DNA of 38,040 nucleotides from the sequence record PQ850616.1, one strand, 5' to 3'. The stretch's first letter is position 1. The number at the start of each line of letters is the position of its first letter. The notes under the pieces were generated by a model. The model made no database searches. It was not told the origin of the DNA and worked only from the letters and a program-made list of their open reading frames with translations. This DNA is from Escherichia phage Louie. A program made the translations under genes and the position numbers. Below, piece by piece: positions 37,403-37,762 of the stretch.

Positions 37403-37762
37403 CCATGTAGGCATTACAAAGCCCATCTACTGGTGGGCTTGATAATGAAACCGTGATTTACATCCCCACAATCCGGGTATGTAAAAGATAGTTCAGGCGA
37501 GAACGGATTTAACTAAATCTGTGCACCACCAGTTGCGGCAGTACCACGAAACAACCCAAGCCAGTAAGTGGGGAAATAACACTGGCAGCCACTGAAAGAT
37601 GAACCTCCAGCCTTATGGCAAAAAAGATTCTTTGTGGTGGCGGACTGATGGAAAGACATCGGTTATTGCAGAGGCCATTCAATGAGTGGTCTCGACAATG
37701 GCTTATACCCTACACGGGATAACTTAACTGATATCCCTTTTAACGGATAAACGGAGCCAACA

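Follow-up and report, generated by a model that had tools for sequence, protein, structure and literature searches.

We analysed the 360-bp interval at positions 37403-37762 of the Escherichia phage Louie sequence (PQ850616.1), within a window that comprises the whole 38,040-nt stretch and represents a P22-like (Lederbergvirus) phage whose nearest relatives are HK620, JEP4 and Sf6. The interval is bounded by the stop codon of a gene for a 156-amino-acid (aa) Tad2-like/DUF2829 protein (36932-37402, + strand; Pfam PF11195, E 9e-27) and by the ATG at 37763 of orf80 (37763-38005; PF10834, DUF2560, E 1e-42). On the + strand it forms an untranslated intercistronic spacer of the late operon that leads from the lysis and accessory genes to the packaging genes. 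It holds two copies of a hairpin family, H1 and H5, and a core at 37524-37660 that resembles the Proteo-phage-1 RNA motif (RF03044), and it flanks positions at which related phages carry accessory genes.

Upstream of the interval lie the genes for lysozyme (35868-36389) and Rz (36386-36853), the latter followed by an intrinsic-terminator-like hairpin (36884-36904) called by a terminator scan. The Tad2-like gene, which encodes a homologue of Thoeris anti-defence 2, is a cassette between this hairpin and H1; HK620 has KilA-N/ORF11CD3 and hkbL in its place. A homologous interval is found between the lysis plus variable accessory genes and the packaging genes in HK620, Sf6, P22, L/ST64T and HK022, and the order of lysis genes, morons (inserted genes with their own promoter and terminator, in the Juhala/Hendrix sense), spacer, orf80 and terminase genes is shared with HK620, Sf6, P22, L and HK022. 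The late genes of P22 (PMC2629481) and of BTP1 (PMC7067206) form one long operon, whose transcription crosses the region of the interval. At its 3' end, the translation-initiation region of orf80 (37745-37778, +), with GGAG at 37753-56 and the ATG at 37763, lies inside a predicted weak hairpin, H7.

Absence of a conserved gene in the spacer

The initial annotation had regarded the stretch between the DUF2829-like gene and orf80 as apparently non-coding, and the comparison with relatives confirms this. The open reading frames (ORFs) inside the interval measure 21-57 aa, none longer, and the small ORFs are all broken in some relatives. The accompanying statement that no ORF has a convincing ribosome-binding site is correct for a 35-aa ORF (37615-37722, +), which lacks a Shine-Dalgarno (SD) sequence; a 22-aa ORF (37682-37750, +) does have GAGG 7 nt before its ATG at 37682. 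The former is the N-terminal extension of 'orf118' of ST64T/L and the latter the positional counterpart of P22 'orf25'. Both were judged non-genic; in the 22-aa ORF, hairpin H5 encloses the SD as well as the ATG, and the C-terminal end lacks conservation.

That these ORFs, the orf25 homologue and/or the 35-aa ORF, encode small proteins appears exceedingly improbable to us, despite the SD of the first and the annotation of both in relatives (orf25 in P22; a portion of orf118 in ST64T/L). Across the relatives neither frame is preserved and there is no synonymous-site bias. Among 51 distinct relatives, the 35-aa ORF has lost its ATG in 3, carries a +1 A frameshift in 3 and a nonsense codon (TGA) in 3, while substitutions in the 22-aa ORF fall mostly at codon position 2, some relatives have lost its stop codon and its C-terminus varies from phage to phage. 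Neither ORF has a Pfam match. A point in favour of coding is that 12 of the 19 polymorphic sites of 37661-37762 (46 relatives) belong to a single mod-3 class, which is the frame of ATG 37615 (p about 0.007, uncorrected). This pattern runs on beyond the stop codon of that frame, and it may be the relic of an older reading frame, or chance. As for 'orf118' itself (L004/L006 1652-2008; phage L, ST64T), it looks like an annotation artefact: a 37-bp deletion joins the SD-less 35-aa ORF in frame to an 80-aa DUF2560 (orf80) allele, 44% identical, that has retained its own GGAG and ATG. The minus strand has a 48-aa ORF (37659-37513) whose extent agrees remarkably well with that of the core. We rejected this one too, because +1 A and +G indels disrupt it in several relatives and it shows no third-position bias.

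Scans of the interval yielded no tRNA or tmRNA and no promoter-like or terminator-like site, the same scan having called the hairpin at 36884-36904 upstream. The suggestion of a late promoter therefore finds no support, in that no sigma-70-like site was found in the interval. A degraded gene, the other possibility raised at the outset, exists in a minor sense only, as vestiges of the neighbouring gene ends and as two spurious ORFs that are annotated in relatives as orf25 and as the N-terminus of 'orf118'.

A covarying family of sense-strand hairpins

H1 (37410-37449, stem 37413-37446, +) and H5 (37661-37704, hairpin 37665-37699, +) are paralogous members of a family of hairpins that abut stop codons. 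Exactly two copies of this family are found in the 38-kb window, both within the interval. The first had been noticed at about 37419-37441; it is real, and at 37413-37446 longer than described. H1 consists of an outer 4-bp stem ATTA/TAAT (37413-16 with 37443-46), a 2x2 internal loop CA/GA, a 9-bp inner stem (37419-27 with 37432-40) and the loop TACT. H5 has the outer stem ATTG/CAAT, the same CA/GA internal loop and a 10-bp inner stem (37671-80 with 37684-93), so that both share the frame ATTR-CA-(9-10 bp stem)-loop-(stem)-GA-YAAT.

Both hairpins are considerably more stable on the + strand. The folding energy of H1 is -19.7 kcal/mol compared with -7.8 +/- 2.4 kcal/mol for shuffled sequences (z = -4.95, with 0 of 200 shuffles as good), against z = -3.1 on the - strand; H5 reaches -23.6 kcal/mol (z = -6.4) on the + strand and -10.2 kcal/mol (z = -2.4) on the - strand. 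The four variable stem positions of H5 all remain paired, and all its polymorphisms are wobble-compatible on the + strand. Relatives with a cassette before H5 have a third allele (type-c), AAAGCCATTC...GAGTGGCTTT in place of GAGGCCATTC...GAGTGGTCTC of the window, and the differences between these two alleles are compensatory.

With the upper five pairs left free, a pattern scan gave more than 100 distinct hairpin variants (e.g. CCATC/GGTGG, TCACC/GGTGG, GTCTC/GGGGC, ATCCA/TGGGT and GTCTA/TGGGC). In an alignment of 33 hairpin sequences, 93.3% of the cells are paired, compared to 30-45% with slid partners, and the number of double-change cells is 28 versus 9.4 +/- 2.1 in shuffles, none of 500 of which reached 28. 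G-U wobble pairs are the dominant kind of variation. The stability on the + strand, together with the wobble-compatible changes, therefore argues that the structure under selection is that of the sense transcript or else of the corresponding DNA strand.

Many lambdoid phages have the hairpin as a module of its own. It mostly adjoins, at distance 0, the stop codon of the preceding gene, and these genes are varied: Rz, hkbL-like, Rha/KilA-like, Tad2-like, Sf6 gene 66 and others. There are also phages in which it is located 13-25 nt before a gene that resembles a small terminase by its N-terminal sequence, a likeness noted without a profile search. Divergent hairpins with the inner stem GCGTCTC/GGGGCGC are seen in enterobacterial and Citrobacter prophages (L137 3332-3371 and L139 2435-2474) directly upstream of a 43-44%-identical DUF2560 gene, and one is also located about 600 bp downstream of that gene, before the next one. 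Nine divergent orf80 loci were found in GTDB genomes, and those of Citrobacter have the hairpin and no core. The hairpin family is therefore older and more widespread than the core.

We do not consider the hairpins to be intrinsic (rho-independent) terminators, because they lack a U-tract: H1 is followed by GAUAAUGA and H5 by GACAAUGG, and neither was called by the terminator scan. Several cassettes have a canonical terminator and, after it, the family hairpin. An identity with ERIC or REP elements and a role as a GcvB sponge were considered and dropped for want of a real sequence match.

The core and its likeness to the Proteo-phage-1 motif

The core (37524-37660, +) is a unit of 125-140 bp with sharp mosaic boundaries, which are kept in at least 5 left contexts and more than 10 right contexts. 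Of 5426 complete E. coli genomes, 1120 contain it. Frameshifting indels in relatives show that neither of its strands is coding, and PGAP annotation is absent under it at 11 of the 12 places listed. In a permissive Rfam scan, the only phage-related match was to RF03044, Proteo-phage-1 (37527-37590, +; 17.4 bits), and the matching letters lie in the most conserved unpaired tracts of that family. Proteo-phage-1 is a candidate structured RNA of proteobacterial phages, and we found no publication on what it does.

For a comparison with authentic members, 83 loci were fetched by the Proteo-phage-1 consensus pattern; bona fide RF03044 was present in 6 of 12 scanned, with scores of 54-81 bits. A model (R1) built solely from non-enterobacterial bona fide sequences had its top match over both strands of the window at 37553-37592 (19.4 bits, E 0.0026), the next match scoring 9.4 bits. 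An extended model of 163 nt (R2) also gave its best match here, a local one (E 0.027) covering the central module. Its alignment uses the loop-to-3' helix, with the compensatory GCCAG/CUGGC for GCCGG/CCGGC. A pairwise alignment of this stretch to the locus L335, a short-stem intermediate like L336, shows 33 of 40 identities (z = 7.3), and L335 itself scores 24.1 bits for RF03044.

The Proteo-phage-1-like module (37553-37592, +) thus occupies the centre of the core. Its putative P2 stem has 3 bp, formed by CCC (37555-57) with GGG (37571-73), and carries the loop AAGCCAGUAAGUG, followed by the tract AAUAACACUGGCAGCC. R1 aligns this loop and its CCC/GGG stem with the P2 loop of the family, AUAAGCCGGnnAGUG. 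The loop AAGCCnGnnAGUG and the 3' tract AAnAACACnGGCAGCC are common to both, in the same order and spacing. In the family, the conserved 3' tract AAaAACaCCGGCAGCC is complementary to the P2 loop, and in the core AAUAACACUGGCAGCC provides the same complementarity, with GCCAG (37560-64) and CUGGC (37582-86) forming a putative pseudoknot. Similarly to the intermediate L335, the core would have its P2 cut to 3 bp and its linker shortened. Beyond the module, a long helix of GCCACUGAAAGA with UCUUUGUGGUGGC is predicted at 37589-37642 (+), enclosing a loop with ACCUCC and invariant among relatives. By eye and in one pairwise alignment, its position can be likened to that of P3 after the GGCAGCC of canonical loci; the helix was not recognised by R2. 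Because R2 aligns the central module only, homology to P3/P4 is not established despite the suggestive pairwise alignment.

Bona fide RF03044 sequences (L255, L257, L258, L266, L274, L288 and others) are themselves conserved for about 80 nt beyond the 82-nt Rfam model. By eye, this extension comprises a covarying helix right after GGCAGCC with a loop of the ACCUCA type and then the hairpins GAGACUGGAUC...GAUCGAUGC.

The core and canonical Proteo-phage-1 are both sense-strand elements of phage late operons and precede the packaging genes; their immediate context differs. Canonical Proteo-phage-1 follows an intrinsic terminator downstream of ninG and a Q-position gene, where the late genes begin, and precedes tRNA and lysis genes, whereas the core follows Rz and the Tad2-like gene and precedes orf80 and terS. 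Sub-threshold copies of the L264 type are found just upstream of terS. In canonical loci, holin genes are also present downstream, with the tRNA genes.

Several findings weigh against this relationship, and with it against the view of the interval given below. The match of the core falls short of the RF03044 gathering score (17.4 against 42 bits), so by Rfam criteria the core is not a member of RF03044; no Rfam family reached its gathering score in the covariance-model scan of the whole window. The P1 hairpin (GCCAGG...CCUGG) is missing and is deleted in the cmscan alignment, with no complementary P1 arm in 37524-37552. The 163-nt model does not extend the match beyond the central module, and an nhmmer profile of canonical Proteo-phage-1 loci finds nothing in the window. 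A change of T to C at 37583 breaks a pair of the putative pseudoknot in 6 of 111 distinct core sequences. Finally, the core copies are 90-99% identical, and with so little variation among 51 close relatives, RNAalifold gave not one double compensatory change over 80 predicted pairs. Taking both sides together, we believe that the core probably carries a reduced relative of Proteo-phage-1.

Hairpin and core are independent modules, since R1 detected the core in only 2 of 100 hairpin-bearing loci. Could the core, on one strand or the other, be a small-RNA gene in its own right or hold a secondary late promoter? With about 125-140 nt it forms a discrete unit, Rfam classes RF03044 as a small RNA candidate, and secondary promoters have been reported in the late region of BTP1 (PMC7067206). 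On the other hand, no sigma-70-like promoter or terminator-like site was found in the interval, the hairpin H4 is lost when cassettes are inserted, and canonical RF03044 directly follows an intrinsic terminator, which leaves no room for a promoter. Moreover, the same core sits between rha and pid in BTP1, and the transcriptome tables of the BTP1 lysogen annotate no non-coding RNA between rha (388358-388963) and pid (389225-389539) (PMC7067206). We therefore regard an independent gene or promoter as quite unlikely. Of the small RNA proposed in the initial annotation, what stands is the presence of conserved structured RNA modules on the sense strand; an independent small RNA is unsupported.

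Modular anatomy, accessory-gene slots and a model for the interval

About 200 phage records hold parts of the interval, at 86-99% identity. We mapped onto the window 120 IMG/VR loci, fetched via an invariant 20-mer inside the core; across 126 loci, breakpoints recur at 37453/60, 37518-38, 37660/65, 37684, 37714/21 and 37751. They divide the interval into modules. The H1 module (37407/12 to 37453/60) is a separate unit in relatives. It is followed by a dispensable 57-bp segment (37461-37517), cleanly missing from many relatives, with the weak hairpins H2 (37457-85) and H3 (37503-22) and a fold z of only -1.6. The core, with its left edge at 37518-37538 and its right edge at 37660 or 37665, is present in all mapped loci, which were fetched through the core 20-mer. 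The 3' segment downstream of 37665 is broken at 37684, 37714/21 or 37751 in relatives, and its 37-bp portion with hairpin H6 (37715-37751; H6 at 37716-37737) is deleted in ST64T/L. As a whole, the 360 nt fold better than shuffled sequences, with z = -4.9 on the + strand and z = -2.8 on the - strand. The initial annotation had named, as its refutation, a region that is variable or absent in relatives and untranscribed. Variability or absence in relatives is seen for 37461-37517 and 37715-37751, and not for the hairpins and the core.

Further rearrangements are visible in individual phages. Stx2-converting phage 1717 (L129 2001-2092) has a hybrid hairpin: directly after H1 comes what in the window stands behind H5, which looks like a deletion of about 250 bp by recombination between the two hairpin copies. 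In HK022 (L003 2228-2309) and HK97, the part equivalent to window 37536-37844 is kept, with the core, H5 and 82 nt from the 5' end of orf80; the homology breaks shortly before an HNH endonuclease gene, orf80 being a 5' stump only. Beyond orf80, the small gene present in HK620 and P22 (hkbN/orf59c) is missing from the window (38006-38040): 38008-38040 aligns to 3272-3304 of the HK620 locus (L001), a deletion of about 170 bp has left a 6-codon remnant, and the end of the window coincides with the start of the small-terminase gene.

Polymorphism of the spacer is low. Among 46 colinear relatives, the nucleotide diversity of the non-coding stretch 37536-37762 is 0.023, and that of orf80 is 0.108 at codon position 3 and 0.014 at codon position 2; there are zero variable sites in 37753-37801. 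This is suggestive of purifying selection. However, the divergences of the spacer (core) and of orf80 are uncorrelated (r = -0.06), which implies heavy recombination, and low diversity is therefore not a proof of purifying selection; it could partly reflect recombinational spread.

These data bear on the idea that the interval is an inert mosaic junction, leftover sequence recently spread by recombination in which the hairpins are fossil terminators. The absence of that correlation fits this idea, as do the homologues, which are all at least 86% and mostly 93-99% identical, with none more divergent, the dispensability of 37461-37517 and 37715-37751, and the lack of covariation within the core. 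Yet the polymorphism is about 5-fold below that of orf80 third codon positions, the core edges recur sharply in all those left and right contexts, the hairpin family is covarying and strand-asymmetric, and the core matches a structured-RNA family that was defined independently. We consider an inert junction to be rather unlikely.

The interval is a fixed scaffold of an accessory-gene hot spot. Before H1, relatives have KilA-N/hkbL, Rha, KilA-N with P63C or, as here, a Tad2-like gene. A second slot at the junction 37660-37661 is empty in this phage; in about 45 of the 126 loci, inserts of 129-1315 bp occupy it between 37660/65 and the H5-type hairpin at which they end (e.g. L002, L012, L037, L057, L061 and L010). 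They encode members of the Sf6 gene 66 (gp49/66) family PF13876, DUF551 proteins, unknown proteins of 57-80 aa, a 246-aa Trypsin_2 protease with a 59-aa partner ORF, and a 23-aa ORF with a strong ribosome-binding site. Gene 66 of Sf6 sits exactly at 37660/37661. The stop codon or the intrinsic terminator of these cassettes, many of which have their own, directly abuts the hairpin. We consider the cassettes of this slot to be candidates for accessory, defence or anti-defence functions.

The moron pid of P22 and BTP1 is found slightly further on, the homology to the window stopping after 37721 and resuming at 37749. The moron site at the P22 pid locus (PMC3573128, Cenens et al. 2013; PMC8835761, Wolput et al. 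2022) coincides with this genomic site: in the late operon it is bordered by the orf25 region and by orf80, and there too related phages have no insert or different inserts, as do the relatives of the window. The window phage has no insert, whereas pid of P22 runs on the opposite strand and has a promoter and a terminator of its own. Neither paper describes the hairpin family or the core. The interval itself is not a moron, as it contains no credible gene; it is the empty insertion site with its flanks, where relatives have morons.

Might the hairpins act at the DNA level, as structure-specific recombination sites of the attC or IS200/IS605 type that bound mobile cassettes? An imperfect, strand-specific hairpin at the 3' end of every cassette, the precise insertion points and the H1/H5 hybrid of phage 1717, with the intervening DNA deleted, would be in line with such a function. 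Nevertheless, we find it very doubtful. The left junctions lie in the core and not at a hairpin, breakpoints also occur within the hairpin loop, and many of them are explained by ordinary homologous recombination between conserved flanks. Moreover, the dominance of G-U wobble in the variation fits RNA, and no dedicated recombinase was seen adjoining the locus, although none was searched for. Hardly more credible to us is an integron-like exchange platform in which hairpins and core shuffle anti-defence and accessory genes (Tad2-like, gp49/66, KilA-N, Rha and pid) at the lysis-packaging junction. The likeness to integron attC sites consists in imperfect strand-specific hairpins at the 3' ends of short, mostly promoterless gene cassettes. 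By inspection, however, the hairpins lack the R''/L'' box architecture, the left junctions are not at hairpins, and no integron integrase or attI is known here, no IntI search having been made.

We propose instead that the late operon has in this interval an intercistronic scaffold, transcribed but not translated, in which conserved sense-strand RNA modules frame accessory-gene slots, a reading to which we assign a probability of about 0.55. The interval stands at the junction of the lysis/accessory-gene cluster and the DNA-packaging genes. In relatives, H1 and H5 begin just behind the stop codon, or the own terminator, of whichever accessory gene lies upstream; in this phage, H1 comes after the Tad2-like gene and H5 after the empty slot. 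On the late mRNA, the hairpins may function between cistrons as 3'-end or processing elements, not as terminators. Like REP stabilisers or T7 RNase III sites, they could stabilise the cistron upstream of them or insulate it. The core may be a cis-acting element of the late mRNA, related to RF03044. At the DNA level, the conserved modules could serve as homology arms for swaps of accessory cassettes by homologous recombination among lambdoid phages.

REP stabilisers of enterobacterial operons and T7 RNase III sites are likewise stable sense-strand hairpins without a U-tract between the cistrons of a long polycistronic transcript, and their stem is broken by a small internal loop, as in H1 and H5. 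They differ in that neither class is defined by a fixed place directly behind a stop codon. The sequence of H1 and H5 is unrelated to REP, and their stem has only 13-19 bp.

To the objections already raised must be added that the modules are separable and none is universally required, because P22 has no H1 and many hairpin-bearing phages have no core; the RNA mechanism of the scaffold, moreover, is one that we infer. As to its kind, the region is nothing unusual, namely a junction between cistrons at a moron site already known. Two of its features we did not find described: the covarying family of hairpins that abut stop codons and the reduced Proteo-phage-1-like module.

The lysis-packaging junction is a site of changing accessory genes in P22-like and HK97-like phages, with a Thoeris anti-defence homologue here, pid in P22 and gene 66 in Sf6 as its cargo, and the fixed structured RNA flanks are of practical use as a landmark when prophages are searched for such cargo. 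Their recognition also corrects recurrent mis-annotations, namely orf25, orf118 and the 'hypothetical proteins' placed over the core. If the likeness of the core is a true relationship, it extends RF03044 to a reduced variant that about one complete E. coli genome in five contains, and puts the motif into the genetically tractable phages P22, HK620, Sf6 and HK97. If the hairpins indeed process or stabilise late mRNA, they would constitute a new regulatory layer of lambdoid late operons.

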